From: Candidatus Melainabacteria bacterium RIFCSPHIGHO2_02_FULL_34_12
Lineage (GTDB): Bacteria; Cyanobacteriota; Vampirovibrionia; 2-02-FULL-35-15
Assembly: GCA_001784555.1 (NCBI GenBank)
Contig: MFRM01000005.1
Location: 99,802 to 163,801, forward strand
Reading direction: 5' to 3'
Length of the DNA stretch: 64,000 nt
Part shown: in pieces, positions 6,189 through 56,420 of the stretch
How the letters are laid out: each line of letters opens with the position of its first letter
Position numbering within the stretch: the stretch's first letter is position 1
Notes under the pieces: generated by a model
What the model was told of the DNA's origin: nothing
What the model saw: the letters and a program-made list of their open reading frames with translations, nothing else
The model's database searches: none
Translations under genes and position numbers: made by a program

Positions 6189-7577
6189 ATGGCTGTAACT
6201 ACCCAGTTTAATGCTTTATTTTCCACCTCTGAAATCAAAGAACTTTTTGGATTTGAAATCCAGGGGTCTAATGAATTCTCACTTTCTACTGATTCAAGAT
6301 CAATAACAAAAGATCAAATTTTTATTCCCCTGTTCGGAGAAAAATTTGACGGACATGATTTTATAAATGATGTCATGGATAGAAATGTAAGGGCTTGCCA
6401 TGGCAAGCCCTTACCAGTGTTTTGTCAACAAGACAAATTATTTAAAGTGCAAGATAAATATAAATCAAACCTTATTCTTGTAGAAAATACACTTGAAGCT
6501 TATCAAAAACTAGCAAATTACCATAGAAAAAAACTAAAAGCAAAAGTTATTACTATCACCGGCAGCTCGGGAAAAACCACAGTAAAAGAACTTATTGCAT
6601 CTGTACTTTCACAAAAATATAAAGTTCATAAAACAGAAGCAAACTATAACAATGAAATCGGAGTTCCTAAAACCATTCTTGAAACCACACCAGATACGGA
6701 AGTGCTAGTGCTTGAACTAGCAATGAGAGCAAAAGGTGAAATCAGACTTTTATCTGAAATATCTGAACCAGACATTGCCATTATTATAAATGTTGGTTCT
6801 GCTCATATAGGACGACTTGGAAGCTTAAGTAACATCATAGAAGCTAAATGTGAAATATTTGAACATGTAAAAAAAGGTGGGATTGGGATTATACATAAGA
6901 ATGGACAATTAATTGATTATCTAAATACAAAAGATCTTAAAAATATAAATGACTTTATAAAATTTGATATTTCAGATTTAGAAGCCAAAGTTCTTTTTAA
7001 AGACGGTAAGTCAAAGTTTATTTTAGACGGAGAAGAATATTTCATTAATGCACAAGGCAAAACACATATTTTAAATTCAATCCTTGTCATAAAGCTTGCT
7101 AAAAAACTTGGCCTAAATAAGAATGAAATTCAAAATGGTCTTTCAAAATTTAAAATACCTGAAGGACGTGGTAATGTTCTTAAGATAAAGGATGAGGTGT
7201 ATATAATTGACGAATCTTATAATGCAAATCCAGATTCACTGAAGGCAGCAGTTTTAAATTTAGTTGATTCCTGGAGTGAGGACTATAAAAAAGTTTTAGT
7301 CATAGGCGAGCTGGCTGAGCTTGGAGAGCAGCAGGTGGGCTTATTAACTGAACTTGGCATATGGTTAAGAGATAAACCAATATACAAATTGATTACGGTG
7401 GGGACTAAACTTAATACGCTAGCCTCATCTTTAAGTTCTAAAAATGTTGCAAATGTTGCAAATACTGATGAGTGCTGTGCTATCTTAAATGATATTCTTG
7501 TCCCTAAAACAGTTGCACTTATAAAGGGCTCACATGTTGCAGGACTGAATAAGGTAATAAATTATTTTCTAAAATAA
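6189..7577 (+). CDS. murF: Mur ligase family, probably UDP-MurNAc-tripeptide--D-Ala-D-Ala ligase
   Basis: 462 aa; ATP-binding ITGSSGKTT motif, Mur ligase middle and C domains. Confidence 0.6.
   Translation: MAVTTQFNALFSTSEIKELFGFEIQGSNEFSLSTDSRSITKDQIFIPLFGEKFDGHDFINDVMDRNVRACHGKPLPVFCQQDKLFKVQDKYKSNLILVENTLEAYQKLANYHRKKLKAKVITITGSSGKTTVKELIASVLSQKYKVHKTEANYNNEIGVPKTILETTPDTEVLVLELAMRAKGEIRLLSEISEPDIAIIINVGSAHIGRLGSLSNIIEAKCEIFEHVKKGGIGIIHKNGQLIDYLNTKDLKNINDFIKFDISDLEAKVLFKDGKSKFILDGEEYFINAQGKTHILNSILVIKLAKKLGLNKNEIQNGLSKFKIPEGRGNVLKIKDEVYIIDESYNANPDSLKAAVLNLVDSWSEDYKKVLVIGELAELGEQQVGLLTELGIWLRDKPIYKLITVGTKLNTLASSLSSKNVANVANTDECCAILNDILVPKTVALIKGSHVAGLNKVINYFLK
6387..6414. repeat. 28-bp GTAG...CTAC-type palindromic element (perfect), in frame in murF
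   Basis: gtaagggcttgccatggcaagcccttac is its own reverse complement; encodes VRACHGKPL. Confidence 0.8.
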
Positions 7578-11502: not shown

Positions 11503-12789
11503 TCACTCCAAAACCCTAATCACATTCTCTACCTGTTTCACAGCATTTAATTTCTTCATCTCAATAATTGCATTTTGTATTTTTTCTTCTTTTACTGAAT
11601 GAGTAAGTAGTGTAATTGATGCTGTACCGTCGTGGTTTGTGCCTCTTTGAGTAAGTGCATTTATGCTTACATCATATTTACCGCAAATAGTTCCAAGCTG
11701 TCCTACCACTCCAGGTTTATCTTCTGCTCTTACTCTTAAAAAATAACAGTTTACTGTTTCTGAAATAGGTTTTATTTTCGCATAATTTTTATGATGACAT
11801 GTAAGTTGAGGATTTGGCTCTCTTGAGGAAGAAAGTTGTGCCACAAGAAGATTTATATCACCCACTACTGAACTTGCAGTGGGTAATTCTCCTGCACCGC
11901 GTCCTATAAGTGTAAGTTCACCGACAAGATTTCCTTCCACCAGCACCCCGTTATTTACACCAAAAACAGATGCAAGCGTATTTGTATTTTTAATAAATGC
12001 AGGATGAACCCTTATGTCAATTTTTTTGTCTGGATCAATTTTTGCAAGACCGATAAGTTTTAACCTGTATCCGAGTTCCTCAGCAAGACTTATATCCTCT
12101 GGTGTAATTTTTTCAATTCCTTCTGTATACACTTCATTTATTTTTATTCTTTCGTGAAATGCAATGCTTGCAAGGATTGCAAGCTTATATGCAGCGTCTT
12201 TACCGGAAATATCATTGGTAGGATCAGGCTCAGCGTAACCCAGCTTTTGTGCATCTTTTAAGCACACATCAAAATCTATATTCTTATTTAGCATTTCGGT
12301 GAGAATATAGTTTGTAGTGCCGTTCAAAATCCCCATGATTTTTGAGAAAGTATTTGCACTTAGAGTTTGTTTAAGAGTATTTATTATAGGAATGCCGCCA
12401 CAGACACTGGCCTCAAACTGAATCTGTACGTTTTTTTCTCTAGCCAAATCAAAAAGCTCGGCGCCATGTGTAGCAATTAAATCTTTATTTGCTGTAACAA
12501 TATGTTTTTTGTTTTGAATGGCTTTAGTAATAAGCTCTTTTGCAGGATTTATTCCGCCGAGAACTTCTACAATAATTTCGATTTCTGGGTCATTGACGAT
12601 TTCGTTTAAGTTTGATGTTAGTAGAGACGTTGTATACAACGTCTCTACTGGCCTTTTTTTATTTATGTCTCTTACACCGATTTTTTTAATTTCAATGTAT
12701 GGATGATTGATCAGGGTTTTTATTACACCTGTACCGACAGTTCCAGCACCAAGCAGTCCGATTTTTATTTTTTTATTAGATTCCGGCAT
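11503..12789 (-). CDS. hom: homoserine dehydrogenase
   Basis: 428 aa; NAD-binding GLLGAGTVG, catalytic domain, C-terminal ACT domain. Confidence 0.8.
   Translation of the reverse strand: MPESNKKIKIGLLGAGTVGTGVIKTLINHPYIEIKKIGVRDINKKRPVETLYTTSLLTSNLNEIVNDPEIEIIVEVLGGINPAKELITKAIQNKKHIVTANKDLIATHGAELFDLAREKNVQIQFEASVCGGIPIINTLKQTLSANTFSKIMGILNGTTNYILTEMLNKNIDFDVCLKDAQKLGYAEPDPTNDISGKDAAYKLAILASIAFHERIKINEVYTEGIEKITPEDISLAEELGYRLKLIGLAKIDPDKKIDIRVHPAFIKNTNTLASVFGVNNGVLVEGNLVGELTLIGRGAGELPTASSVVGDINLLVAQLSSSREPNPQLTCHHKNYAKIKPISETVNCYFLRVRAEDKPGVVGQLGTICGKYDVSINALTQRGTNHDGTASITLLTHSVKEEKIQNAIIEMKKLNAVKQVENVIRVLE
12621..12648. repeat. 28-bp GTAG...CTAC palindromic element (perfect), in frame in hom
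   Basis: gtagagacgttgtatacaacgtctctac; encodes PVETLYTTSLL on the minus strand. Confidence 0.85.
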
Positions 12790-17398: not shown

Positions 17399-17426
17399 GT
17401 AGGCGGGGTCCCGGGATCCCGCCTAC
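17399..17426. repeat. 28-bp GTAG...CTAC palindromic element, intergenic hup/oxidoreductase
   Basis: gtaggcggggtcccgggatcccgcctac, near-perfect palindrome 8 bp after the hup stop; no U-tract follows. Confidence 0.8.
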
Positions 17427-23286: not shown

Positions 23287-24756
23287 AATATCCTCTTCTA
23301 ATTTAATCCCTTTAATTTTTGCAAGCCCAGGCCACGTGTTTCGCCATCGTAGGGTTGAGGTTACCTCAACCCTGGCATGATCGGGAATCTCAAATTCATA
23401 CGTCGTTATGTCGGATTTACCTGCCATAATTCTTGTATCACTTGCAATAAAAACATTCCACCAATCAGGCGGTGGAATGTCTCTTATACCGGGCGCACCA
23501 CGGTGTGCCCCTACAAATCGCGTACCATATTCACTATATGTTTCGGAGAGAATCTTTGCAAATAATTTTCCTGGTTTGTTTTTTAAATTGCCTGCATAAA
23601 TTGGTAATTTTGGACCTTTGATTTGTACGGGTTGTAGAGACGGGGTTACCCCGTCTCTACGGTTTTTATATTTAACATCAATAACAAGAATTGCATTTCT
23701 CATCGGAGAACCTGTTGGGAAGCTATGACCGAAGTTGTTGTTTGAGACTTTTGCGGTGACGATTAGTATATTGTTGCCATTTGTTGAGACGCCCCGATGG
23801 GGCGTCTTTACGGTGATCATTAGATCAACATATTTCTTCCTAAACTCATGGGGATTGCTGCTCAAGAAACTATGACTATGAATCTGGTGGTAAGGACGTG
23901 ATTTTTGTTTTATATTTGGATTATCAACGATTGAAAAACGCTCTGTCAGAGCGTCTCTACCGGGTTTCATATGACAACTTTGACACTGCACACCTTTTTT
24001 TGCTGCCGGACTATTTGCCCATTCTGTAAATGTTGAGTAAATTTGTACATTTCCATTTGAGCCATCATGGCATTTAGCACAGATGAGACTTGTTTTATAA
24101 AGCGAATTATATTTTAATTCCTCATTTTCGCCGTATTTTTGCTCTGTTTCATCATCAATTCGTTCTATTTTTATTGAGTCCTTAATTGGTCCAAACCTTA
24201 TATCCTTCATTCCTTTGCATGTTCGTAAAATATTTAAACCTTCGACTCCTTTTTTAAATGGATTTTGATCTACACTTTCAATCTTATGACAGAAATCACA
24301 GGAGATACCGTTTGTTTTTTTTGCATTGCGTTTTCTTAAATCAATATCATTAAGACGCCCTGCCGGGGCGTCTCTACCGGATAATGTTGCTTCAGGGTTG
24401 TGGCAGAGAGCACAATTCCCATTTTTATCAGGGTGATCTTCTTTAAATCGTTTATAAACTTCTAAAAAGAAAGGATTGTTTTGGCTCATGGAATGTTTAT
24501 CATCTTTCCATTCTTTGTAATAAGCTATGTGACATGAAGAACAATTTTTTAAAAGTAATTCCCCTTCTTTACTGGATGTGTTTGGGTCAAACCATTTATA
24601 GACGGTGCATGTATCGTTGTGTGTTGTAGAAGCGTATTCCAATACGCCTCTACTTTGTTTTGGTGATGAAGCAATGACGTGAAACGTTTGTGAAATAAAA
24701 ATAAATGACAAAATCGTTGTAGAAATTAAAACAATAATCTTTTTATAAATAGACAT
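23269..24756 (-). CDS. pentaheme c-type cytochrome (NrfA-like size; family uncertain)
   Basis: 495 aa; signal peptide; five CxxCH motifs (CSSCH, CALCH, CDFCH, CAKCH, CQSCH); contains six palindromic-element copies. Confidence 0.65.
   Translation of the reverse strand: MSIYKKIIVLISTTILSFIFISQTFHVIASSPKQSRGVLEYASTTHNDTCTVYKWFDPNTSSKEGELLLKNCSSCHIAYYKEWKDDKHSMSQNNPFFLEVYKRFKEDHPDKNGNCALCHNPEATLSGRDAPAGRLNDIDLRKRNAKKTNGISCDFCHKIESVDQNPFKKGVEGLNILRTCKGMKDIRFGPIKDSIKIERIDDETEQKYGENEELKYNSLYKTSLICAKCHDGSNGNVQIYSTFTEWANSPAAKKGVQCQSCHMKPGRDALTERFSIVDNPNIKQKSRPYHQIHSHSFLSSNPHEFRKKYVDLMITVKTPHRGVSTNGNNILIVTAKVSNNNFGHSFPTGSPMRNAILVIDVKYKNRRDGVTPSLQPVQIKGPKLPIYAGNLKNKPGKLFAKILSETYSEYGTRFVGAHRGAPGIRDIPPPDWWNVFIASDTRIMAGKSDITTYEFEIPDHARVEVTSTLRWRNTWPGLAKIKGIKLEEDILFFVR
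23349..23375. repeat. GTAG...CTAC-family palindromic element in cytochrome gene
   Basis: gtagggttgaggttacctcaaccctgg; 11-bp arms; encodes ARVEVTSTLR. Confidence 0.65.
23634..23660. repeat. GTAG...CTAC palindromic element (27 bp) in cytochrome gene
   Basis: gtagagacggggttaccccgtctctac; encodes RRDGVTPSL. Confidence 0.85.
23784..23811. repeat. GTAG...CTAC-family palindromic element in cytochrome gene
   Basis: ttgagacgccccgatggggcgtctttac; encodes VKTPHRGVS. Confidence 0.7.
23945..23960. repeat. partial or degenerate element (right terminus gtctctac) in cytochrome gene
   Basis: gtcagagcgtctctac; encodes GRDALTE. Confidence 0.4.
24351..24377. repeat. GTAG...CTAC-family palindromic element in cytochrome gene
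   Basis: taagacgccctgccggggcgtctctac; encodes GRDAPAGRL. Confidence 0.75.
24636..24663. repeat. GTAG...CTAC palindromic element in cytochrome gene
   Basis: gtagaagcgtattccaatacgcctctac (2 mismatches); encodes SRGVLEYAS. Confidence 0.7.
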
Positions 24757-25139: not shown

Positions 25140-27779
25140 TCACAATCTATTCTTCTCACTAAACCATTTCATAAACTCAGTTACATTTCCTTTAAATTGA
25201 TCTATAAGTACTTTCTTAAAAAGATTTGGCTCAGAACCAGCTCTAAAAACTTCTATTTTATATGGAGTGTCCAGAACATGCTCACAGATAATTGAGAATT
25301 CCTCATTCGCCGATACGCCGATACGCCGGTTCGCCGACACGTTTTTCCTAATCTTTACTTCTACATCTCTTTTATCAGCATCTAATTTATCTAAACCATA
25401 AATTGAAATTAAATCTTCTCTATCGAGCTTTGCTCTGTCAGCAGGGTTTTTATATGTCATATAAAATAACCCCTGTTCAATTGCATTTTCTCTGTGAATT
25501 GGGGCAAAGCTTTCGGCTATACAGACCCTTGCCCTTAAGTGTCTTGGAATAAATGCTGCTGCTTCACGTGAACTGCCCGAACCAAAAAGTTTTCCACCTA
25601 CCATCACTGAACCATTATTATTTTTCTTATATTCTTTTCCTAGATTATAGTAATACTGAGGATCTCTATTTTCCTGAGAAGCCTTACTTTCAAAGAATCC
25701 AAGCTCAAGTTCAAGAAGATTTCCTCTTTTTGGAATATAGTTTATTCCTGCAGCAGATAAATCATCTGTGGTTACATTGTCACCAAGAACTATTAGTACA
25801 GGAATATTCTCAAACTTATCTGGCGGGATGTCGTACATATCATCAGGAAGTGCTGAAATTGTTTTTCCATCATAAAGTACTTCTATTTCTTTGGATTTGT
25901 CTTTTGGTGCAGGAAGAATAAATGCTGGTCTTTTGCCATCTGGGTTATTAAAATCATTTGAGATAACGGGTGTTAATTTTGCTTCGCTTGTAGGATTTGA
26001 AAGTTTTATTTTTACTTCTTTGCCGGATTCGTCTTTAGTTATAAATGATCTTGAGTCTGGATCATAACTATCGAATCTTCCACAACTGGCTAGATATACT
26101 ACAACTGCAGGACTTGCCAGATAAACCTGATCGATTTTAGATTTAGTGCCTGCTCTTCCCATGAAATTTCTGTTAAAGGATCTAACAGATGCAGTATCTT
26201 CCTCCGGAGCAAATCCCATACCGATACAAGGACCACATGCACTGTCAAGAAGAATAAGATGTCCCTTTTCAATGAGTTCTTTAATAGTTGTGTTTGACTG
26301 AACTGAAAGCCAGCCGTCACGTGAGCCGTAAGTAACGCTTATAGGAGTTTTTCTTTTTGCTTTATTTTTTGCAAGCTGTAAATTTGCCCACACGGCAGCT
26401 TCAATATCATCTTTTCCAGAATGTGTGCAGCTTCCAATACTGCCTGAGCTGATGTCAAGGCTTAATTTCCTTTTTTCATAGGATTTTTTAATGTCTATTT
26501 CCTGTACGACGAAATTAATAAGGGTTTCTTGTGGGGTGGCGCGTAAAACGGGCGTACCGCGGCATACTCCTACAAAATCTTTTACCTTTTCTTTGTCCAC
26601 CTTACCGTCTTTTAAAAAATCTTTGTATCGAGAAAATATTTCTTCGTTTATAAAATTAATAACTTTTGGAATTTCATCCAGGTAAAAAACGTTTTTTGGA
26701 TTTCCAGGAAGTGCCAGTGCAGGATGTATTTCTTTTGAGAGGTCATATTCAAGAACTTTATCATAATATTTCCCAGGGTCTTTTATGACCTCAGGATCCG
26801 GATTTAAATCTTTTAGATTTTTTTCAGTCCATTTTGCCAGATCAGATCTATTTCTTGATTCAAGATATTTTACTACCTCTTCATCAGGAGGAAAAAGCCC
26901 TGTACCCATTCCTCCGTCTACGAGGGAATTTGTAATAGAACTTCTGCCCACGACAGAAACTGATTTTACTCCTTCTCCAAAAAACTCAATATAGCTTCCA
27001 TTTCCTTCATTTCCAAAAAGTCTGATAATATCCCTGTTTAATAATTGAACAATTTGTTTTGGTTCGGTTCCTTCAGGCAATGAACCCTTAAGATGAACCC
27101 CAATTATAGGATTTCTGTCTACTGCCATAGGAAGTCCGGCTGCAAGTGATTTTGCAATGCTCCAGCCGCCTTTTCCAATAGCAAACATACCCATTCCGCC
27201 AGCTGTTGGTGTATGTGAATCAGAGCCAAAAAGCACTCCGCCTGGCATATCAAAATATTCATCGCTTACTCTGTGGCAGATACCGTTTCCAGGAAGTGAA
27301 AAAACTATTCCTCGCTTACTTGAGCTGGTTCCTAAAAACTTAATTCCTTCTTTGTCCTGAATAATTGCCTGTTCAATTCCATAATCGACTTTTATATTAT
27401 GGTCATAATATAAAACTGTAAGAATGTCAGACTGATCTCTTCCAAGAAGTTTAAATAAAAGTTCTGCCTGAAGAAGAAGTAATTTTCCTGTAGCATCCTG
27501 AATTAACAGGAGATCTGGTCTTAAATAAATAATAGAACCTTTTATAACCGGATCTCCTGCATCCAGATGTGCATACCAGATTTTTTCAATTGCAGTTAAT
27601 GGGTTTTTAATTTTCCCGACATATTTAGATTCACTGAATATTTTTGGTCTTGTGTTTTTTATCTTTAAAACAAAGTTTTTATCTTCAGGTGTATCCGGGT
27701 AACCATCTAATTCCCTTCGTGGATCATATACAATTGGTTCTGGAATTTTAGGTGGCTTAGGAATAATTTGAGTAGTCAT
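25140..27779 (-). CDS. aconitase family protein (aconitate hydratase-like) with ~60 aa N-terminal extension
   Basis: 879 aa; IQDATG, SHTPTAGGMG, CGPCIGMG, SGSSREAAA aconitase motifs. Confidence 0.7.
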   Translation of the reverse strand: MTTQIIPKPPKIPEPIVYDPRRELDGYPDTPEDKNFVLKIKNTRPKIFSESKYVGKIKNPLTAIEKIWYAHLDAGDPVIKGSIIYLRPDLLLIQDATGKLLLLQAELLFKLLGRDQSDILTVLYYDHNIKVDYGIEQAIIQDKEGIKFLGTSSSKRGIVFSLPGNGICHRVSDEYFDMPGGVLFGSDSHTPTAGGMGMFAIGKGGWSIAKSLAAGLPMAVDRNPIIGVHLKGSLPEGTEPKQIVQLLNRDIIRLFGNEGNGSYIEFFGEGVKSVSVVGRSSITNSLVDGGMGTGLFPPDEEVVKYLESRNRSDLAKWTEKNLKDLNPDPEVIKDPGKYYDKVLEYDLSKEIHPALALPGNPKNVFYLDEIPKVINFINEEIFSRYKDFLKDGKVDKEKVKDFVGVCRGTPVLRATPQETLINFVVQEIDIKKSYEKRKLSLDISSGSIGSCTHSGKDDIEAAVWANLQLAKNKAKRKTPISVTYGSRDGWLSVQSNTTIKELIEKGHLILLDSACGPCIGMGFAPEEDTASVRSFNRNFMGRAGTKSKIDQVYLASPAVVVYLASCGRFDSYDPDSRSFITKDESGKEVKIKLSNPTSEAKLTPVISNDFNNPDGKRPAFILPAPKDKSKEIEVLYDGKTISALPDDMYDIPPDKFENIPVLIVLGDNVTTDDLSAAGINYIPKRGNLLELELGFFESKASQENRDPQYYYNLGKEYKKNNNGSVMVGGKLFGSGSSREAAAFIPRHLRARVCIAESFAPIHRENAIEQGLFYMTYKNPADRAKLDREDLISIYGLDKLDADKRDVEVKIRKNVSANRRIGVSANEEFSIICEHVLDTPYKIEVFRAGSEPNLFKKVLIDQFKGNVTEFMKWFSEKNRL
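25305..25340. repeat. xTxCGCCG octamer tandem repeat, in frame in aconitase gene
   Basis: ttcgccgatacgccgatacgccggttcgccgac; encodes VSANRRIGVSANEE. Confidence 0.6.
26550..26573. repeat. decayed copy of the GTAGGGGCGTA-subfamily element in aconitase gene
   Basis: gggcgtaccgcggcatactcctac; right half matches copies at 41140 and 32269, left arm mutated; encodes VGVCRGTPVL. Confidence 0.4.
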
Positions 27780-27798: not shown

Positions 27799-27827
27799 GT
27801 AGAGACATTGCGGCGCAATGTCTCTAC
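27799..27827. repeat. 29-bp GTAG...CTAC palindromic element, intergenic; supplies TAG stop of nagB-like gene
   Basis: gtagagacattgcggcgcaatgtctctac; 20 bp upstream of aconitase start. Confidence 0.85.
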
Positions 27828-31339: not shown

Positions 31340-32794
31340 TTAATTTTCTTTGTTCTTTTTTGGTTTAAAACCCTTTAAGAGGCTGCTTTGTGGCTTTATT
31401 TGTGATCTTTGCATATTATTTGGCATAACATTTCCAGGATTCATCATGCCTTTTCCCTGTCCGCTAAACATACCCATCATTTTTTTCATTTTTGAGAATT
31501 CACTGACTAATTGATCTGCATCTTTTTCTTTTAGTCCGGCCCCGCGTGCAATTCTTCTTTTTCTGCTTAGATTTAAAAGAGATGGTTTCATTTTTTCTTC
31601 TTTACTCATGCTTTGAATAAGGGATTTAAACTTTTTCATTTTTACTTCACCTTCAGAAAGTAATTTTTCCTGAGTGTTTTTATCTATGTTTACTCCCATA
31701 TTCCCAAGCATTCCACCCATGCCCATCATATTAAATATATTTGAAAAATCACCCATCTTTGACATCATGTTTTGAGCAGAAAGAAAAGATTCAAAATTAA
31801 AATCACCTAACAATTGTTTTTCTATTTCTTTAGCCTCGTCTTCTTTTATTTTTTCCTGGGCTTGTTCTACCAGAGTTAGTACATCACCCATTCCAAGGAT
31901 TCTAGATGCCATGCGCTCAGGATAAAACTCCTGAAGATCGTCAATTTTTTCTCCAACACCTGCAAACTTTACTCGTTTTCCTGTTTCCTCTACTACAGAA
32001 AGAGCGGCGCCGCCTCTGGCATCACCGTCCAGCTTTGTAAGAATAATTCCTGTAATTCCAATCTGTGTGTTAAATGCAGCTCCTATATTTGCTGCTTCCT
32101 GACCCAACATAGAATCTATTACCAAAAGTTTTTCATCTGGTTCAACAGTTCTGTCTATAAGCAAAAGCTCAGCCATCATTTCTGTATCGATCTGTAATCT
32201 CCCTGCGCTGTCAAGGATGACTACGTCGTGGTTATTTTTTTTTGCGTGGTCAATAGCGTTTTGCGCCAGTAGGGGCGTATGGCCATACGCCCCTATATCG
32301 CCTGGCATTTGATATACTGCTATGCCAATTTGATTTCCTAGTATATTTAATTGCTCCACAGCAGCAGGACGTTTTAAATCTAATGGCACTAAAAGCGGGT
32401 TTTTACCTTTTTTCTTTAAAAAGTTTGCCAGCTTTGCACAGGTAGTAGTTTTACCGGCACCCTGAAGACCGAGCATTAATATTACAGATGGCGTAGCATT
32501 GATGTTGAGACGCTCCATTGGGGTGTCTGTACCGCCAAGAAGATTTGTAAGCTCATCACTAATTATTTTTATAAAAAACTCGCTGGGAGAAACTCCCTTT
32601 AAAACTTCCTGACCAATTGCTTTTTCACGTACCTTATTTGTAAATGTTTTAATGGCTTTTAAACTAACGTCAGCATCTATAAGTGCTCTTTTTATCTCAC
32701 GTATGGCAATATCAATATTTTCTTCAGTAATTTTTGACTGAGAGCGAAGAGATTTAAAGATGTTTTGGAGATTTTCTGTTAATTGATCGAACAT
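31340..32794 (-). CDS. ffh: signal recognition particle protein Ffh
   Basis: 484 aa; GLQGAGKTT, DTAGR, KLDGDARGG, M-domain Met-rich tail. Confidence 0.9.
   Translation of the reverse strand: MFDQLTENLQNIFKSLRSQSKITEENIDIAIREIKRALIDADVSLKAIKTFTNKVREKAIGQEVLKGVSPSEFFIKIISDELTNLLGGTDTPMERLNINATPSVILMLGLQGAGKTTTCAKLANFLKKKGKNPLLVPLDLKRPAAVEQLNILGNQIGIAVYQMPGDIGAYGHTPLLAQNAIDHAKKNNHDVVILDSAGRLQIDTEMMAELLLIDRTVEPDEKLLVIDSMLGQEAANIGAAFNTQIGITGIILTKLDGDARGGAALSVVEETGKRVKFAGVGEKIDDLQEFYPERMASRILGMGDVLTLVEQAQEKIKEDEAKEIEKQLLGDFNFESFLSAQNMMSKMGDFSNIFNMMGMGGMLGNMGVNIDKNTQEKLLSEGEVKMKKFKSLIQSMSKEEKMKPSLLNLSRKRRIARGAGLKEKDADQLVSEFSKMKKMMGMFSGQGKGMMNPGNVMPNNMQRSQIKPQSSLLKGFKPKKNKEN
32269..32296. repeat. 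GTAG...CTAC palindromic element (GGGGCGTA subfamily) in ffh
   Basis: gtaggggcgtatggccatacgcccctat; encodes GDIGAYGHTPLL. Confidence 0.8.
32505..32532. repeat. degenerate element in ffh, related to copy at 23784
   Basis: ttgagacgctccattggggtgtctgtac; encodes GTDTPMERL. Confidence 0.5.
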
Positions 32795-34693: not shown

Positions 34694-35050
34694 ATGTCTA
34701 TAGTTCAAGCTGCTTTAGCGCCTGGCGCAGTAAAGCCTTCCTCATTAATTAAACCGGGAGCCCGTATATCCGATATTCCAGTAAAAAACAGTGATGGCAG
34801 TCCTTTAGATGGATACGCTGTATTTATCAGTGGTAATCTGTCGCCTGCACTTACAAATGTAGGAATATTTAGAGAGCCTTTTAAAGGACCTATTAACTTT
34901 TCAAGAGAAACAAACACAAAAACAGTATTTCTTTATCCTAGTCAGTTGGGTTTATCAGTGTTAGATAGCGAACAAAGAGATGTTAGCCATGATTTTATAG
35001 TAACTGCCCAGGCTCCTATGAATTATAAAATCCCTCGCTGCCACGCTTAG
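34694..35050 (+). CDS. hypothetical protein
   Basis: 118 aa; strong SD aaggag 8 nt upstream. Confidence 0.4.
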   Translation: MSIVQAALAPGAVKPSSLIKPGARISDIPVKNSDGSPLDGYAVFISGNLSPALTNVGIFREPFKGPINFSRETNTKTVFLYPSQLGLSVLDSEQRDVSHDFIVTAQAPMNYKIPRCHA

Positions 35051-36596
35051 CGGTTACGAAGTGTTTTTCAATAACCTCTTTATTTAAAAATCCCTGAATA
35101 TTGTCCCATGGCAGTTTTATTTTCTCATCCCACTTTTTAAAAATAAAATAATCTGCATTTATTTTTTCTTCTTTCAATGCTTTATTAAAGCTGCCAAGAG
35201 TACTTCCATATTTATATGCTTTTACAAGTGCTTTATTTATGCTTCTGTCTCCGCGTGATATAAGTGCCTGAATAAGTGACCATCTGTAACTTTCTGCTCT
35301 AAAATCCACTCCTATTTGATGCAGTTCTTTTGAATAATATTTTAATTTTTTTTCAGCGTCTTTATCTACTCCATACCACTGGAATGGTGTACCTGCTTTT
35401 GGTACAAAGACAGAACTTCCCCAGACTAGCTTTTTAGTTTTGTTTTTTAATTTAATTTCTTTCAAGAAATTAACAGTTTCTTTTAAATCACTATCGGTTT
35501 CATGTGGTAATCCAACCATTCCATAAAGTTTTATAGATTTAAAACCAGCATTATAAATAGTCTCAATAGAGTTTGTTATGGTCTGGTTGCTGACTTTTTT
35601 ATTTATTATCTCGCGCAGTCTTTCTGAACCTGTTTCAACTGCCATGGTTATTGACTTTGCGCCTAATTCAAAAAGTCCGTTCGCAAGATTTTTAGATATA
35701 GTATCTGCTCTTACTGATGCAATCTGGACATGGATTTTATTTTCCTTGTTTTGTCCATTGAGATATTCAATCAATCCTTCAAATTCCGGATGTTGTGTAA
35801 CCGATGCTCCGAGCAACCCGATTTTATTTGTATGTTTTAAACCAAAATCAATTACTGGAATTAAACTTTCTTTTAAATCAGGTGTACGGAAAGGAAGTGA
35901 ACCGTAACTAGCTAAACAAAACCTGCAAAGCTCAGGACAGCTGCGTACTACCTCGACAATAAAAGTATCAGGCCAAACGGAATTTGGGGTAAGGATGGAT
36001 GAGGAGGTAAGGTTACCACGATTTGTTTTTCGTTTTGTTGTAGGGAACAGTCGCAACTGTTCCCTACAAGAGGGAACATAAACACCATCTAATTTTGCCA
36101 AGGCATTTAATTTTTCCTCACGGTTTAAATCTTTTATTTCAACAATTTTATTTATAAAACCTTCTGCAATTTCTTCTAAATCGCCAGTCAGAAAGAAATC
36201 AAAATTATCACAAAATGGCTCAGGATTTGCATTTGGGACCTGTCCGCCACAAAATATAATAGGATCCTTTTCGCCTCTTTCATTTGAATATAAAGGAATA
36301 TTATTTTTTTCTAACATTGAAAAAATATTTTTATAATCCAGCTCCCACGAAAATGAAAAACCTACGTATGAGGGTCTAGCATTGAAACCTGATTTACCGG
36401 AATTTTCTTCTATATCCGTAAACCACCGTATGGCTTTTAAATCCTCGTTCTGATTAAATAACTTCCATGCAGTTTGAAAACCCAGACTTGCCATACCGAC
36501 AGAGTATATATTTGGAAATGCAATTGCCATGAGGCTTGCATCTCTTTGCTTAGCAGGTATGTTAATTATGATTTTTTCTTCTTGAAATAAAGACAT
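35016..36596 (-). CDS. B12-binding-domain radical SAM protein
   Basis: 526 aa; CPELCRFC (CxxxCxxC) radical SAM motif; N-terminal B12-binding-like domain. Confidence 0.7.
   Translation of the reverse strand: MSLFQEEKIIINIPAKQRDASLMAIAFPNIYSVGMASLGFQTAWKLFNQNEDLKAIRWFTDIEENSGKSGFNARPSYVGFSFSWELDYKNIFSMLEKNNIPLYSNERGEKDPIIFCGGQVPNANPEPFCDNFDFFLTGDLEEIAEGFINKIVEIKDLNREEKLNALAKLDGVYVPSCREQLRLFPTTKRKTNRGNLTSSSILTPNSVWPDTFIVEVVRSCPELCRFCLASYGSLPFRTPDLKESLIPVIDFGLKHTNKIGLLGASVTQHPEFEGLIEYLNGQNKENKIHVQIASVRADTISKNLANGLFELGAKSITMAVETGSERLREIINKKVSNQTITNSIETIYNAGFKSIKLYGMVGLPHETDSDLKETVNFLKEIKLKNKTKKLVWGSSVFVPKAGTPFQWYGVDKDAEKKLKYYSKELHQIGVDFRAESYRWSLIQALISRGDRSINKALVKAYKYGSTLGSFNKALKEEKINADYFIFKKWDEKIKLPWDNIQGFLNKEVIEKHFVTAKRGSEGFYNS
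36040..36067. repeat. 28-bp GTAG...CTAC palindromic element (perfect) in radical SAM gene
   Basis: gtagggaacagtcgcaactgttccctac; sister of copy at 42210. Confidence 0.85.
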
Positions 36597-36975
36597 GATA
36601 CGTTATTATTGTACGTTAGATTTAGCGATAATCATGAACAAACCAAATAAAAAAGTAATTCAAAGTGAAGAAATTTACGAAATATATGACAGGTTAAATA
36701 AACATTATTTTAACGGGTCATTGCCATATATTAGGATACTTTGGACAAATACATTTGGGCATGGAGAATGGTTTAAACAATTTGGGGATTTTATTGCACT
36801 ACCTGGAAAGAAACCGTTTATAAGGCTTTCACAAAAGCTCTGTAGTGATCCAAAAGAAATAGCACGTGTTCTTTATCATGAAATGGTTCATTTTTGGCTC
36901 TATGTAAATAAGAAACCATGGGGTCATACGAAAGAATTTAAGAAAAAACTTAAAGAGTTTAAATTAGAAGTGTAG
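36595..36975 (+). CDS. SprT-like zinc metalloprotease domain protein
   Basis: HEMVHFW...H (HExxH + downstream H); true start may be the ATG at 36634. Confidence 0.5.
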   Translation: MIRYYCTLDLAIIMNKPNKKVIQSEEIYEIYDRLNKHYFNGSLPYIRILWTNTFGHGEWFKQFGDFIALPGKKPFIRLSQKLCSDPKEIARVLYHEMVHFWLYVNKKPWGHTKEFKKKLKEFKLEV

Positions 36976-37017
36976 CTTTTTAAAGTCATATAAATTTTTC
37001 TGCTATTATTATTAACC

Positions 37018-38139
37018 ATGGCATTGCATCTTGTAAGAACAAAACAAATCACCTCTCAGAATATTGAAAAAAATATTGAAAATATTCCGGAGCTAATGAA
37101 TGCTTGTTTATTTTATGGACCTTATGATATACGAAATGAAAAAATCTCTGTTCCGCAAATTAACGATAATGAGATACTTGTAAAAATTAAAGCAGCTTTA
37201 ACTTGTGGCACTGATTTAAAAACCTTTCAGAGGGGTCATCCACTTTTAATAAAATCTATCCCTTCTACTTTTGGACATCAGTTCTCAGGAGTAGTAGTTA
37301 AAACTGGTACAAATGTTAAAAACTTTAGCGTGGGACAGAGAGTAGTAGCACTTAATTCCACTCCATGTTACCAATGCAGATTTTGTATAAAAGAACAATT
37401 TAGCCTCTGTGAAAACATTGAATTTTTAAATGGAGCATATGCAGAATACATTGCAGTACCTGAAAACATAGTTAAGCATAATACTTATGAAATCCCGGGA
37501 AATATTCCATTTGAAGCTGCTGCATCACTTGAAGGACTTGCAGTAGTAATTCATGGAATTGAAAGATCTGAAATATCCAGTGATAAAACAATTTGTATTA
37601 TCGGCACAGGATCAATAGGTCTTATGTTTGTAGCTCTTGCAAAACTAAACGGCGCTAAAGTTATTTCAATAGGCAGAAAAGATTACAAATTAAATGCAGC
37701 AAAAAATCTTGGAGCTGATTATGTTTTAAATATGACAGAGTTTGGAAATCCTGAAGACTTGCAAAAAAAAGTAAATAATCTGACAAATGGTTTCGGGCCT
37801 GAAATAGTTATTGAAGCTGTGGGTCAGCCAGAGACATGGGAACTTGCTACTAGATTAGTCACCAGAGGCGGACTGGTTAATTTTTTTGGAGGATGTAAGA
37901 AAGGTTCTAAAGTCGAACTTGATACTTACAGGCTTCATTATGATGAGCTTAAGTTAATAGGAGTTTTTCACCATACTCCAAAACATGTACAAACCGCTTT
38001 AAATCTACTTAAAAACGGCTCATTCCATGAAAAAGTATTTGAAAAGATAATTACCCATATTGTTCCTCTCAGAGAACTGGAAAAAGCATTTTTAATGCAT
38101 CAGTCCGGAGATGCAATTCAAGTAGCTGTTAAGCCCTAG
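37018..38139 (+). CDS. zinc-dependent alcohol dehydrogenase (MDR family; threonine/sorbitol dehydrogenase-like)
   Basis: 373 aa; catalytic and structural Zn Cys clusters (CGTD, CYQCRFC), GTGSIG Rossmann. Confidence 0.75.
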   Translation: MALHLVRTKQITSQNIEKNIENIPELMNACLFYGPYDIRNEKISVPQINDNEILVKIKAALTCGTDLKTFQRGHPLLIKSIPSTFGHQFSGVVVKTGTNVKNFSVGQRVVALNSTPCYQCRFCIKEQFSLCENIEFLNGAYAEYIAVPENIVKHNTYEIPGNIPFEAAASLEGLAVVIHGIERSEISSDKTICIIGTGSIGLMFVALAKLNGAKVISIGRKDYKLNAAKNLGADYVLNMTEFGNPEDLQKKVNNLTNGFGPEIVIEAVGQPETWELATRLVTRGGLVNFFGGCKKGSKVELDTYRLHYDELKLIGVFHHTPKHVQTALNLLKNGSFHEKVFEKIITHIVPLRELEKAFLMHQSGDAIQVAVKP

Positions 38140-38170
38140 TTATATCTTAAAGTCATTTATTTTCTTGATT

Positions 38171-38350
38171 TGTATCACGGGAGTTTTATTGCGCCCGAGC
38201 GAAAAACTCGGGAGCTTGCTCCCGGAGATGTGAGCGAGTAGCAACAAAACGCCTCCTTACTAACGCTTCCCGATGCCCATGGCTCAAATCGGCGAAAAAC
38301 TCTGTGAGCTTGCTCCAGAGATAGTCGATTTGAAGGGAGGCGTTTTATAA
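38171..38350. other. GC-rich structured element with tandem direct repeats nested in an 11-bp inverted repeat
   Basis: direct repeats at 38199-38242 and 38291-38335; IR aaaacgcctcc/ggaggcgtttt at 38246-38256 and 38336-38346; T-run follows. Confidence 0.5.
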
Positions 38351-38392
38351 TCTTATGTTGTGGTATAAATTACATTAAAGGAGTTACAGGAT

Positions 38393-38947
38393 ATGAAATC
38401 CGCAAGAAGATATTTAATAGTACTAACAGCATTAATCTCGTTAATAGCATTTTCAAACAATCTTTCCATTGCACAAAATAAAGAGACAAACTTAGAGGAA
38501 AGAAAAGCAATGACAGGCGGAGGCGGGACCTCTGGAGTTGTTGATTCAGCATGTGCATGTCTGGAGCCAGGCAATAAAGCTATTTTAAAAGCTTACGGTT
38601 CGCTAGAAGAAGATGAATGGCCAAAAGCAATAGTTGAATCAAAAAATGCCATCGAAACAATTAATAACCTTGCTAAGACATGTAAGTGTCCTGAAGTTGA
38701 TACATATAAAAAGGTTGCTGACTCATTTCTAAAATATGCTCAGGGTGGAAATCACCTGGATGGAGCTGATGAACCAAATTGTCCATTTGCACTTAAGGTC
38801 TACGGAGAAGCTATCAGCGGATTAACTGAGGCAATACCGAAAATTACAAACAAAGACGTTAAAGATAATGTTAAAAACATTCTTGAATATGCTCAGGAAG
38901 AACAGCAGTTTGTAAAAGATGAGTGTCAAGAAGAGAAAAAATCCTGA
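38393..38947 (+). CDS. secreted Cys-containing hypothetical protein
   Basis: 184 aa; signal peptide MKSARRYLIVLTALISLIAFS; SD aaaggag. Confidence 0.45.
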   Translation: MKSARRYLIVLTALISLIAFSNNLSIAQNKETNLEERKAMTGGGGTSGVVDSACACLEPGNKAILKAYGSLEEDEWPKAIVESKNAIETINNLAKTCKCPEVDTYKKVADSFLKYAQGGNHLDGADEPNCPFALKVYGEAISGLTEAIPKITNKDVKDNVKNILEYAQEEQQFVKDECQEEKKS

Positions 38948-40488
38948 TAGTACAGCTATTCTTATTTTTTACCTTTATTGGCCTTTATTTAAGACTTGCT
39001 GGAGTCGGGCATTCAGCGTCTTATTCCATTAATCCAGCAGAGGCTTCTTATGTTTTAAAAATAATTTCTCCGTTCAGAAGCCTTTTTCAGTTTCATTCAT
39101 TTCATTCCTCGCCTTTATTTTTGTTTATTAATTCGCTCATAGTTTTTATTTCATCATTTTCTTTTGATTTAAATACTTTGTTGAATAAACTTGATGTAGA
39201 TCCAGCAGTTATTTACCTCCCCCTTAGATATTTAAGTGCTTTTTTTAGTGCAGGCTCAGTTGTTATTATTTATTTTATCGGCTCCTTATTCACTGCTACA
39301 TGTGGAGTTCTTGCCAGCGGTTTTCTGGCTGTATCTCTGTTACATGTGAAGTTTTCTGGATTAATTCATCCCTTTAGCGGAGTCATATTCTTTTTACTGT
39401 TATCCCTCTACTTTACGCTTAAATTTAACTACAAACTTTCTTTTTTATTTGCTTTGCTTTCTTCTCTTATGCATTATTCGGGTTTAATAAGCATACTTCC
39501 TTTATTGTTTGTTTTGGCTTTAAAAAAAGAATATGTGGAATTAAAATCTGTTCTTGGCAGGTTCGTTTTTTTGTCTGTAATATTAAATCTTTTTGTTGTT
39601 ATTGATTTTGTTTTTTTATTTCCTAAAATATTAAATTCTTATTTTATTGGTTATAATAATTATCACTTAAGTTCCTTTCTTCTTTATCTTTTTAAATATC
39701 TATGGCATGGAGTGGGTCCTGTAGTCTGGCTTTCAGCAGTTTTCTCACTTTTATATTTAAAAAATTATGATAATCTAAAAATCAAGGTTTTATTTTTAAT
39801 ACCAATCGCATATCTTGCATTTATTGGTTTGTTTCATTTTACAGAGCTTGGTTATGCTGTGTTGCTGGTACCGTTTTTTTGCCTAGCCTCTGCATTATTT
39901 TTTAGTTCTTTTTACAGAGAAGATAATGAAAGAAAGTTTATTTTCATTCTCCTTGTTTTATTTGCTCTATGGATTCCGTTCAAATATTCAGTTAAATACA
40001 ATAAACTTATGAGTTTGCCGGATACTCGTACTATTGCTAGTGACTGGGTTAAAGAAAATGTATCAGATAGAATGAAGATTGCCTGGGATAAAAACAGCCT
40101 GCAGTTAAACTGGCAGAATGCTTATGATAAGAAGGAATTAAAAGGCTTAACAGGTGAAGCAGTACTTCTTCTAAATCGAAGAAACTTTCCGATTGAATAT
40201 GATTTACTTAAGAAAAAAGACTGGTTTAAGTTCTTAAGAAAAAAAGCAGACTATGTTGTTATAAACAGCTATGATTATGAACTTACATTAAAGCAGTCTG
40301 GACAAATTCCAAAGAAAAAATATTATTTAAAGATGCTTAAGCAAAAACCATATATGGTTTTTGATCCATATCTTAAAGACTACGATAAAAAAACAAAACA
40401 TTCTTTGCCTGAAGAATTATACTCACCCTTTCTTAGCCTCTGGCAAAGAGAGCGTTCGGGACCTGTGATTAAGGTGTATAAGATATGA
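38923..40488 (+). CDS. polytopic membrane protein, possibly ArnT/PMT-like glycosyltransferase
   Basis: 521 aa; ~10 hydrophobic helices then soluble C-terminal domain. Confidence 0.4.
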   Translation: MSRREKILIVQLFLFFTFIGLYLRLAGVGHSASYSINPAEASYVLKIISPFRSLFQFHSFHSSPLFLFINSLIVFISSFSFDLNTLLNKLDVDPAVIYLPLRYLSAFFSAGSVVIIYFIGSLFTATCGVLASGFLAVSLLHVKFSGLIHPFSGVIFFLLLSLYFTLKFNYKLSFLFALLSSLMHYSGLISILPLLFVLALKKEYVELKSVLGRFVFLSVILNLFVVIDFVFLFPKILNSYFIGYNNYHLSSFLLYLFKYLWHGVGPVVWLSAVFSLLYLKNYDNLKIKVLFLIPIAYLAFIGLFHFTELGYAVLLVPFFCLASALFFSSFYREDNERKFIFILLVLFALWIPFKYSVKYNKLMSLPDTRTIASDWVKENVSDRMKIAWDKNSLQLNWQNAYDKKELKGLTGEAVLLLNRRNFPIEYDLLKKKDWFKFLRKKADYVVINSYDYELTLKQSGQIPKKKYYLKMLKQKPYMVFDPYLKDYDKKTKHSLPEELYSPFLSLWQRERSGPVIKVYKI

Positions 40489-40493
40489 ACAAT

Positions 40494-40533
40494 GTCATTG
40501 CGAGGAGGAACGTAGTGACAACGAAGCAATCCC
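40494..40533. repeat. TGTCATTGCGAG...ACGAAGCAATC repeat family, solo copy
   Basis: shares 12-nt and 11-nt termini with copies at 46833 and 46927; lies 6 bp after the stop of the upstream gene. Confidence 0.6.
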
Positions 40534-40617
40534 GGACTAACTTGCGTAAATCGATCGGGATTGCCACGCCTCCCTTCCGGTGCCACCAGCAATTAATGAA
40601 TTGGATATAATATTCCC

Positions 40618-41907
40618 ATGGGTTTACAAATCAAAGAAACTGATACTATAACACAACTCAAATCTGCAAAAGCTGCATCACGTAAGCTTGCTAAAGCTTC
40701 AAATGAAGAAAAAAATAAAGCACTTAATTTAATTGCTGATGAGTTACTTTTATCTAAAGATGTAATACTAAGTGCAAATAAAAAAGATCTCGAAGCAGGT
40801 AAGAACAGTAATCTTTCAAATGCACTTCTAGACAGGCTTATGTTGGATGAGAAAAGACTTTCAGGCATGGCAGAGGGGATAAAAAAAGTACTAGCCCAAA
40901 AAGATCCTGTGGGTAATAAAATTGCCTCATGGAAACACCCTAAAGGCATGATGATTACAAAAGTCTCTGTGCCGCTGGGTGTAATATGTGTAATTTATGA
41001 AGCCAGACCTAATGTCACTACTGATGCAGTTTCACTAGCCGTAAAATCAGGAAATGCCATTATTCTTCGCGGAAGTCAGCATGCTACAGAATCAAACCAA
41101 GCAATTGTGGATTGCATACATCGTGCATTGAAAAATCTCGTAGGGGCGTACCATGGTACGCCCTTGTTGAATGAGGGAATTGTTCAATTCATCGCCTCAA
41201 AAGACCGTGAAGAAACCATAAAAATCCTTGAAGCAAAAGATTATGTAGATCTTGTTATTCCAAGAGGCGGTGAAGACCTAAAAGATTTTGTTTTAAAACA
41301 TTCTAAAATACCGGTGATAGGAGCAGGCGGCGGTACATGTCATTTATTTATAGATGAAAGTGCAAAAGAAAATATGGCAGTAGATATTGCATTTAATGCT
41401 AAAACCCAAAGACCTGGGGTTTGTAATGCCATTGAAACTGTTTTAGTCCATAAAAATATAGCTAAAAATATTCTTCCTAAATTACAAGCAAAATTAAATG
41501 AAAAAAAAGTAGAGATATTTGCATGTGACAGAACAGGAAAAATTATTTCAGATGTAAAACCTGCAACAGAAGAAGACTGGTATAAAGAATACCTGGATTT
41601 AAAAGTAGCAGTGAAAGTTGTAGATTCACTGGATGAGGCTATTGAACATATAAATAAATACGGCACTCGTCATTCAGAATCCATAATTACAGAAAATAAA
41701 GAAAACGCTTCTAAATTTCAGGATGAAGTCGATGCTGCTTGTGTTTATGTAAATGCCAGCACACGTTTTACTGACGGCGAAGAATTTGGATTTGGATCTG
41801 AGATAGGAATTTCCACGCAAAAATTACATGCACGTGGACCAATTGCACTTGAGCAGCTTGTGACTTATAAATATTTAATTTCAGGTGAAGGACAGACTAG
41901 GACATGA
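40618..41907 (+). CDS. proA: gamma-glutamyl phosphate reductase
   Basis: 429 aa; aldehyde dehydrogenase fold, VIYEARPNVT and C-terminal QKLHARGP. Confidence 0.85.
   Translation: MGLQIKETDTITQLKSAKAASRKLAKASNEEKNKALNLIADELLLSKDVILSANKKDLEAGKNSNLSNALLDRLMLDEKRLSGMAEGIKKVLAQKDPVGNKIASWKHPKGMMITKVSVPLGVICVIYEARPNVTTDAVSLAVKSGNAIILRGSQHATESNQAIVDCIHRALKNLVGAYHGTPLLNEGIVQFIASKDREETIKILEAKDYVDLVIPRGGEDLKDFVLKHSKIPVIGAGGGTCHLFIDESAKENMAVDIAFNAKTQRPGVCNAIETVLVHKNIAKNILPKLQAKLNEKKVEIFACDRTGKIISDVKPATEEDWYKEYLDLKVAVKVVDSLDEAIEHINKYGTRHSESIITENKENASKFQDEVDAACVYVNASTRFTDGEEFGFGSEIGISTQKLHARGPIALEQLVTYKYLISGEGQTRT
41140..41166. repeat. GTAG...CTAC-family element (GGGGCGTA subfamily) in proA
   Basis: gtaggggcgtaccatggtacgcccttg; 20-bp perfect palindromic core; encodes LVGAYHGTPLL. 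Confidence 0.8.
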
Positions 41908-42461
41908 TGAATCGGCAAACTGCCTCACGGCCAGGTAGCCGTATAGGTCTTTTTGGCGGTACCTTTAATCCTATTCACAATGGGCATTTACAGATGGCTG
42001 ATAAGGCACTTAAAGAATATAAGCTTTCAAAGGTGTATTTTATTCCGTGTGGAATTCCGCCTCATAAAAAAATTAAAGATCTTCTTCCTGCAAAGCTCAG
42101 GTATAAACTTGTGAAAGATGCTATTAAAGGAAAAAAATATTTCAAGGTTCTGGATATAGAAGTTAAAAAAAAGAAACCATGTTATACGATTGATACCGTT
42201 AAAACCCTTGTAGGGACCAGTCGCGACTGGTCCCTACTGTATTTTTTAATCGGACAGGATGAATTTGAAAACCTAAAAACCTGGAATAAACCAAATGAAC
42301 TTGCAAAGCTAGTCACCTTTCTGGTTTTGCCAAGAAGCCTAAAAAAGATTAAACCACCTAAAATAAAAAATCTACAATGGTCACCTGTTCATACAAAGTT
42401 AATTGATATATCAAGTACTGAAATCAGAAGAAATATCAAACCACCGCACAAGCCCCGTTAG
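41904..42461 (+). CDS. nadD: nicotinate-nucleotide adenylyltransferase
   Basis: 185 aa; [12 protein letters not shown]; start overlaps proA stop. Confidence 0.8.
42210..42237. repeat. 28-bp GTAG...CTAC palindromic element (perfect) in nadD
   Basis: gtagggaccagtcgcgactggtccctac; encodes [11 protein letters not shown]. Confidence 0.85.
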
Positions 42462-46751: not shown

Positions 46752-46832
46752 ATATAATAATCTAGGCTTGACCTCACAAATATTGTCAGAGTTGTGAGGA
46801 GCGGTAGCGACGAGATACATCACATCAAAATT

Positions 46833-46877
46833 GTCATTGCGAGAAGTCCGCCTGAGGCGGACGACGAAGCAATCTCA
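46833..46877. repeat. TGTCATTGCGAG...GAAGCAATC family copy B (left arm of MITE-like inverted pair)
   Basis: tgtcattgcgagaagtccgcctgaggcggacgacgaagcaatctca; internal palindrome gtccgcctgaggcggac. Confidence 0.65.
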
Positions 46878-53935: not shown

Positions 53936-53963
53936 GTAGAGCCGCGATTAATCGCGGCTCTAC
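53936..53963. repeat. 28-bp GTAG...CTAC palindromic element (perfect) between tRNA-Ala and sigma factor 3' ends
   Basis: gtagagccgcgattaatcgcggctctac is its own reverse complement; T-rich flanks on both strands, so a possible bidirectional terminator. Confidence 0.85.
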
Positions 53964-56392: not shown

Positions 56393-56420
56393 GATAGAGA
56401 CAGGATCACCCTGTCTCTAC
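56393..56420. repeat. 28-bp GTAG...CTAC palindromic element, intergenic; supplies TAG stop of scpB
   Basis: gatagagacaggatcaccctgtctctac; starts 2 bp after the TGA of the upstream plus-strand gene. Confidence 0.8.

Follow-up and report, generated by a model that had tools for sequence, protein, structure and literature searches.

Among the repetitive extragenic palindromic (REP) elements of bacteria, the GTAG-tagged REPs are defined by a 5' GTAG foot, have stems that form compensatory sub-families, and often supply a TAG stop codon from the foot; their GTAG is an unpaired tag at one end, and the copies are mostly extragenic and often dimeric, with intragenic copies in some species (Opitutus terrae, Rickettsia) and with the cyanobacterial families GTAG-12, -15, and -16 (Di Nocera et al. 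2013, PMC3733652). The 'double foot' REPs linked to subclass 2.4 of the tyrosine transposases associated with REPs (RAYTs) begin with 5' GT[AG]G and end with 3' C[TC]AC, occur as in-frame insertions inside tnpA_REP, and could arise from a REP dimer via a central deletion; members of the subclass occur in Cyanobacteria and Bacteroidetes as well as in scattered phyla, and its transposases carry the motifs NH[IFV]H, WQ, and YIxNNP (Quentin et al. 2018, PMC6006769). REPINs, which consist of two inverted REPs and a spacer and measure about 100 nt, are non-autonomous and linked to a RAYT that is present in a single copy (Bertels and Rainey 2011, PMC3116915). Here we report the analysis of a family of short palindromes in a 64-kb stretch of the genome of Candidatus Melainabacteria bacterium RIFCSPHIGHO2_02_FULL_34_12 (contig MFRM01000005.1), the whole of which is referred to as the window. 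We conclude, with a probability of roughly 0.78, that these palindromes are double-foot REP elements, non-autonomous and partnered by a RAYT (an HUH-Y1 enzyme) of the subclass 2.4 type.

The palindromes of the window share with the GTAG-tagged REPs the GTAG foot, the supply of TAG stops, the intragenic copies, and the compensatory stems, but differ from them in that the foot is paired with its mirror, the units are single, and 15 of the 19 copies are intragenic. With the double-foot REPs of subclass 2.4 they have in common the double foot and, at the level of the family, RAYT genes that themselves contain a palindrome; in contrast, the host is here a non-photosynthetic member of the Melainabacteria, many core types occur within 64 kb, most copies reside in housekeeping genes, and a cognate RAYT was not found in the window or in related DNA. 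Like REPINs, they are non-autonomous hairpin elements that form populations of related sequences within a genome. Unlike REPINs, each of them is a single 28-nt palindrome that lacks a spacer, and within 20-100 nt of the window palindromes no partner copy was found.

Anatomy and genomic location of the palindromes

A hairpin scan of the window (35% G+C, coding fraction 0.91) identified about 19 members of the family (Table 1), whereas first-order Markov simulations of the same 64 kb produced no more than 1-3 G+C-rich hairpins, whatever their kind. Each unit is a palindrome of 27-29 nt with a constant foot, GTAG(A/G)G, the mirror C(T/C)CTAC, and a hypervariable mirrored core between them, leaving 0-4 unpaired central bases. 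The pattern formed by the head and tail feet had no match in 100 dinucleotide shuffles, and the palindrome family is real and far from what chance would produce. As in double-foot REPs, GTAG or GTAA starts 15 of the 19 copies, and the intact ones end in CTAC or TTAC. Copies of the GTAGGG type and of the GTAGAGAC type were treated as one family, since they occur on the same contigs and at the same orthologous sites.

The repeat is dispersed beyond the window, with further copies in seven related genomes. The closest relatives of the window organism are metagenome-assembled Melainabacteria (Caenarcaniphilales-like), whose aconitase protein is about 80% identical. NadD has an exact match in ENA ERZ28563694. 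A combined set of 40 copies, all found as hairpins, was compiled from the window and these seven genomes. Positions 1-4 are G, T, A, and G in 34, 32, 35, and 31 of them, respectively, and the feet are paired in 70-78%. When folded as single-stranded DNA (ssDNA), six intact window copies formed stems of 12-14 bp with energies of -11.7 to -16.2 kcal/mol (z-scores of -4.6 to -9), and no shuffled control folded as stably.

In contrast to classical REPs, which are extragenic, 15 of the 19 copies are located wholly within open reading frames (ORFs), and a further two extend over a stop codon. The hosts are ordinary, conserved genes, encoding MurF, homoserine dehydrogenase, Ffh, ProA, NadD, aconitase, a radical S-adenosylmethionine (SAM) protein, a glucosamine-6-phosphate isomerase-like protein, and a multihaem cytochrome. 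The first base of the foot always occupies codon position 1 or 2 and never position 3, where the foot would read TAG. The elements add or overwrite about 1-10 codons in variable loops of the host proteins. At the ends of two genes the foot itself supplies the TAG stop; the first of these, 27824-28630(-), ends in TAA in relatives that lack the copy at 27799. The multihaem cytochrome gene holds five REP copies, which make up about 10% of its coding length, and its orthologues are 55-68% identical. The intergenic copy at 53936-53963 lies 12 nt past a tRNA gene and ends 4 nt before the stop of a sigma-70 gene on the other strand.

In-frame palindromic repeats within conserved genes, apparently tolerated in surface loops, are reportedly also a feature of the Rickettsia palindromic elements (RPE) of Ogata et al. 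2000; the RPE-1 elements are said to be about 100-150 bp long, of other sequence, without a GTAG(A/G)G double foot, and from an unrelated lineage.

Table 1. Palindrome copies in the 64-kb window, with their core type, pairing, and position relative to genes
Coordinates	Sequence or type	Length and state	Position or host gene	Remarks
1400..1427		decayed; 10/14 pairs	in ORF 947-1888(+)	
6387..6414	GTAAGGGCTTGCCA type	perfect	in murF 6189-7577(+)	encodes VRACHGKPLP
12621..12648	GTAGAGACGTTGTA type	perfect	in homoserine dehydrogenase (hom) gene 11503-12789(-)	
17399..17426	GTAGGCGGGGTCCC type	13/14 pairs	intergenic	12 nt upstream of ATG at 17438
23349..23375		27 nt; eroded tail	in multihaem cytochrome gene 23269-24756(-)	
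23634..23660		27 nt; perfect	in multihaem cytochrome gene 23269-24756(-)	
23783..23811		29 nt; 11/14 pairs	in multihaem cytochrome gene 23269-24756(-)	
23932..23960		decayed; left foot lost	in multihaem cytochrome gene 23269-24756(-)	
24626..24653		12/14 pairs	in multihaem cytochrome gene 23269-24756(-)	
26548..26578	GGGCGTACCG type	decayed; indel	in aconitase gene 25140-27779(-)	net +1 codon vs relatives
27799..27827		29 nt; perfect	intergenic	foot is the TAG stop (27824-27826) of gene 27824-28630(-); absent in L002, L003, L008
28026..28053	GGGGCTTGCTG type	eroded head	in glucosamine-6-phosphate isomerase-like gene 27824-28630(-)	
32269..32296	GGGGCGTATGG type	13/14 pairs	in ffh 31340-32794(-)	encodes IGAYGHTPL
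32505..32533		decayed	in ffh	relatives A, E, H carry three different types; C, D, F, G empty
36040..36067	GTAGGGAACAGTCGCAACTGTTCCCTAC, core GGAACAGTCG/CAACTGTTCC	13/14 pairs; ssDNA hairpin -14.8 kcal/mol	in frame in radical SAM gene 35016-36596(-)	encodes CREQLRLFPT; orthologues with other core types
41140..41167	GGGGCGTACCA type	eroded tail	in proA 40618-41907(+)	clean 24-30-nt gain vs seven relatives
42210..42237	GTAGGGACCAGTCGCGACTGGTCCCTAC	28 nt; perfect palindrome	in frame in nadD 41904-42461(+)	
53936..53963	GTAGAGCCGCGATT type	perfect	intergenic	between tRNA 53852-53924(+) and stop of sigma-70 gene 53968-55023(-)
56394..56420		27 nt	between convergent genes	tail is the TAG stop (56417-56419) of gene 56417-57160(-)

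Covariation of the palindrome arms

A preliminary description of the window, made from its letters alone, had singled out the copies at 36040-36067 and 42210-42237, both of which we recovered, as perfect palindromes that differ at three positions, with every difference mirrored on the opposite arm. The change at positions 8 and 21 (A-T to C-G) is indeed mirrored, but that at position 16 (A versus G) is not. Accordingly, the 42210 copy is a perfect palindrome, whereas the 36040 copy has a C/A mismatch, because position 16 changed while its partner, position 13, is C in both copies. Two further sub-families behave as had been described: three mirrored pairs (positions 12-14) separate the copies at 32269 and 41140, together with one-sided erosion of the 41140 tail, and three (positions 4, 13, and 14) separate those at 6387 and 28026, together with the eroded head of 28026. 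The decayed copies noted earlier at 1400, about 26548, and 32505 are likewise present.

Across the 40-copy set, 262 of the 280 cells at core positions 7-13 are paired, compared with 114 ± 8.7 when the right arms are shuffled among copies. The set contains 34 distinct cores, and at positions 9-12 all four bases are seen as paired states. This test is partly circular, since the copies were found as hairpins; therefore, we scanned a metagenome collection by the ends alone, using the pattern GTAGAGAC-N12-GTCTCTAC and leaving the core out of the selection. The scan yielded at least 120 loci (770 kb) and at least 135 copies, with 87 distinct cores among the matches listed; none of the 120 matches listed is a locus closely related to the window organism. 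Six of the six core pairs are formed in 85 of these end-selected copies, five in 33, four in 12, and three in 5. For the 87 distinct sequences, with 500 shuffles and slid partner columns as null models, both-sided changes were counted in 203 cells versus 54.5 ± 10.3 after shuffling (none of the 500 shuffles scored as high), and the covariation score was 0.405 versus 0.111 in shuffled and 0.04-0.10 in slid alignments. The preliminary description had staked its case on an excess of mirrored over independent changes in a larger copy set, and this excess was found.

Copies of the GTAGGG type follow the same pattern in contigs of the IMG/VR database, where fully paired cores occur in 79 of at least 146 copies with GTAGGGGC ends and in 6 of 20 with GTAGGGAC ends. 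Palindromes of the forms GTAGGGGC...GCCCCTAC and GTAGGGAC...GTCCCTAC with paired variable cores are common in these contigs, which are filed as viral (L140-L278) and range in G+C content from 35% to 73%.

The mismatches that interrupt the stems are mostly transitions. When oriented along the sense strand, G.U and A.C mismatches number 19 versus 22 and 8 versus 8, and this equal frequency gives no sign of selection at the RNA level. The constraint or mechanism acts on DNA; of the readings offered in the preliminary description, selection on an RNA hairpin found no support. Mirrored change alone is no proof of copying through a hairpin, as it fits equally well with the recognition and copying of intact hairpins only.

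The diversity of the cores varies between genomes. Nearly every one of the 19 window copies has a core of its own, and several other genomes have contigs on which the copies are all identical; contigs L044, L066, L077, and L082 carry one dominant master sequence, as in typical REP populations. Some copies have feet that are changed on both arms together (L019 10832-10859 and 11839-11866, L003 6104-6132, and L015 12569-12597). These symmetric foot mutants, which include GGAG...CTCC and GCAG...CTGC in L019, read GCAGGT...ACCTGC and GGAGAG...CTCTCC in perfect palindromes and GCAGAG...CTCTGC around an imperfect core; symmetry survives the loss of the GTAG foot.

In the flanks of 85 perfect end-selected copies, we detected a weak preference for T at -1 (35/85) and A at +1 (36/85), and neither a target-site duplication nor a conserved target. 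In this respect the palindromes differ from miniature inverted-repeat transposable elements (MITEs) and other elements derived from insertion sequences (IS), which are marked by terminal inverted repeats with a target-site duplication or a fixed target. The subterminal hairpins of the IS200/IS605 group are recognized as ssDNA by a Y1 HUH transposase, and cleavage is guided by a nearby tetranucleotide. The palindromes resemble them in being DNA hairpins, but those of IS200/IS605 are the ends of gene-carrying IS elements with a defined target tetranucleotide, whereas here nothing beyond the weak T(-1)/A(+1) preference is conserved.

Turnover at fixed sites and association with RAYT genes

Palindrome sites turn over much faster than the sequence around them. 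At the 36040 site, about 40 radical SAM orthologues from Melainabacteria, which are 65-96% identical, carry at least seven kinds of element-type peptide (CREQLRLFPT, RRERSRPFPT, xRDVACNVST, CxGLPWQAPT, xRDAINRVST, RRDRSRPVPT, and RRGLLQQAPT), and the same peptide types recur at other loci of the window. Deeper orthologues and those of cyanobacteria have no element at this site, and at least three further loops of the same protein are occupied in some lineages. Such type switching was also observed at the 42210 site in nadD, at the two ffh sites, at the glucosamine-isomerase and aconitase sites, and likewise in a variable loop of the RAYT genes described below. Genomes F (L014) and G (L018) are 90% identical at the nucleotide level and 79% at third codon positions, and it is only at the palindrome sites, over about 30-90 nt, that their identity declines to 0.30-0.45; the confinement of the divergence to such short stretches leaves long recombination tracts unsupported as its source. 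Since the same loops are re-occupied by other core types, resident copies appear to have been replaced rather than merely mutated.

The net change in length relative to empty orthologues differs from site to site: it amounts to +24 to +30 nt in proA, about +21 nt at the first ffh site, +12 nt at the C-terminal site of the radical SAM gene, +3 nt in aconitase, and 0 at ffh alignment columns 356-366, where one arm is near the ancestral codons. Compared with homologues in the PDB, NadD is longer by one residue and Ffh by three to four. A clean 10-codon insertion is therefore not the whole story, and resident copies may be replaced or converted, not only inserted.

A second, longer family of nested palindromic repeats, TGTCATTGCGAG(G/A)AG ... 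ACGAAGCAATC(T/C)C ... G(A/G)GATTGC ... TCGCAATGACA, was also encountered. Both of its window copies (46832-46966 and 40493-40570) are intergenic; in relatives it is found in those loops of nadD and the glucosamine-isomerase gene that are occupied by REPs in the window, sometimes adding 30-60 residues.

The preliminary description had offered mobilization of the HUH/REP type as one reading, and this reading is supported by the GTAG foot, the mirrored CTAC, and the presence of RAYT genes at five (L023, L040, L064, L071, and L077) of the 120 listed loci, which had been selected only by the palindrome. The five proteins match NCBIfam model NF047646, 'REP-associated tyrosine transposase', with E-values of 5e-13 to 9e-17, under the equivalog cut-off yet across most of the model. 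All five have the motifs NH[LVFI]H, WQ, and YIxxNP, and for one a match to E. coli TnpA_REP (PDB 4ER8) covers the HUH and WQxRF...YIxxNP motifs. Each of the five genes contains a palindrome in the same variable linker, with a core that differs from genome to genome. In L023 and L077, copies are also present on both flanks of the gene and are of the same core type as the one within it. A search for homologues of these RAYTs retrieved 7,569 proteins at E ≤ 1e-20, many of them named 'REP element-mobilizing transposase RayT' by the Joint Genome Institute (JGI); none of the 120 matches listed is named as Melainabacteria. Our literature search for Melainabacteria together with palindromes or RAYT returned nothing specific.

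Origin and significance of the family

The double-foot REP interpretation can be cast as a mechanism modelled on RAYT and IS200-type enzymes, which is the usual one proposed for REPs and the one that the data favour most. The element, once single-stranded, would fold into a hairpin, and a RAYT would recognize this hairpin together with the GTAG foot, where it would cleave and rejoin the DNA. If processing and copying were limited to copies with an intact stem, new copies would be perfect palindromes, and a substitution would persist only when matched on the other arm, which would give rise to co-varying arms. Copies that are no longer processed would decay one arm at a time, mostly by transitions. 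Enzyme-independent template switching in quasi-palindromes may also help to keep resident copies symmetric, or may seed new ones.

Several observations weigh against this interpretation. A motif search of all ORFs in the window and in about 250 kb of DNA from related Melainabacteria found none that is RAYT-like, for which reason we infer the enzyme link in this genome. The metagenomic loci listed are not close relatives, so that the link holds by family and not by genome. Moreover, the RAYT association is seen directly for the GTAGAGAC type only and not for the GTAGGG type, to which the copies at 36040 and 42210 belong; a stricter motif search of at least 139 IMG/VR loci with GTAGGG-type copies found no RAYT-like ORF. 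In typical REP populations a single master sequence dominates each genome, whereas here almost every core differs; the presence of several REP classes in one genome is known in pseudomonads (PMC3686654). The symmetrically mutated feet are unexpected if selection keeps the GTAG foot, and a net length change that ranges from 0 to +30 nt is unexplained by simple insertion.

The strongest competing explanation, which we nevertheless regard as unlikely, is an enzyme-independent symmetrization, in which template switching during replication copies one arm onto the other, so that mutations are erased or mirrored and palindromes arise in place. In its favour are ffh columns 356-366, where genome E carries a perfect GTAGCTGCGTTTCATGAAACGCAGCTAC at unchanged length relative to orthologues and with a right arm near the ancestral codons, and where a different palindrome occupies these columns in genomes B and B2. 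The aconitase site, with a net change of a single codon and with ancestral GTA and TTA codons on its flanks, and the symmetric foot mutants of L019 and L003/L015 point in the same direction. However, template switching leaves unexplained the GTAG(A/G)G foot and the uniform length of 27-29 nt, the occurrence of the same core types at unrelated loci and in unrelated genomes, the clean gain of 24-30 nt in proA, and the association with RAYT genes.

Selection at the RNA level, with the palindromes serving as transcription terminators or mRNA-stabilizing stem-loops, is very improbable. Such roles have been proposed for REPs (PMC3733652), and three copies are located at gene ends (27799, 53936, and 56394), two of them overlapping stop codons. 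However, 15 copies are inside ORFs, where termination would do harm; the elements are strand-symmetric and mostly lack a following run of T, and the sense-strand mismatches show no G.U bias. Rfam models matched only two tRNAs and a SAM riboswitch in the window and none of the palindromes, and an RNA element was rejected on these grounds. The least probable explanation, that the perfect dyad symmetry with constant outer half-sites marks binding or cleavage sites of a dimeric DNA-binding protein (a regulator, a restriction-modification system, or DNA uptake) with a function for the host rather than mobility, is hard to reconcile with the hypervariable cores, with presence or absence among close relatives and the free decay of copies, and with the location of most copies inside unrelated housekeeping genes. 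A palindrome of the cyanobacterial HIP1 type was also rejected, as its octamer, GCGATCGC, has no occurrence in the window.

If the palindromes are double-foot REPs, one extension of this interpretation can be put forward, although we hold it to be doubtful: the REPs of this lineage could be exchangeable cassettes at fixed intragenic sites, where a resident hairpin would be excised and replaced, or converted, with little change in length. Such cassette exchange, if it takes place, would amount to a natural, enzyme-driven rewriting of about 10 codons in surface loops of housekeeping proteins, among them Ffh, NadD, and aconitase, and of the RAYT itself, and it would account for the match between the REP inside each RAYT gene and the REP type of its own genome.

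The palindromes belong to a class that has already been described, the double-foot REPs with a RAYT partner, and open no new category; the overall novelty is therefore modest. What may be new is that the host belongs to the Melainabacteria, that coding sequence is hardly avoided at all, and that fixed protein loops show a fast turnover with switching of types. The double-foot REP class is thereby extended to the non-photosynthetic sister group of cyanobacteria. The palindromes also form a natural data set of unusual cleanness: as their feet are constant, copies can be gathered with the core left out of account, and compensatory change in a DNA hairpin can be measured free of circularity. To our knowledge, no transposition assay of REPs has succeeded, and the heavy in-frame load in essential genes, together with the fast type switching, bears on how REPs are copied or replaced, as well as on their status as parasites, as neutral passengers, or as contributors to protein variation. 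For genome annotation, lineage-specific inserts of 8-10 residues derived from REPs can mislead alignments and trees.

Among the related sequences, L006 (CAZRTB010000001.1) is titled 'uncultured Gammaproteobacteria bacterium', a label that is probably wrong given its synteny and 64-78% protein identity with Melainabacteria loci; its 22.6 kb contain no REP copies. The SAM riboswitch of the window (Rfam RF00162, 67 bits) is located at 43751-43881(-), upstream of metK 42436-43695(-). Finally, the ORF at 52358-53671(-) encodes an extremely lysine-rich protein of 437 residues with low-complexity KKLK/EKxK runs in its first 250 residues.

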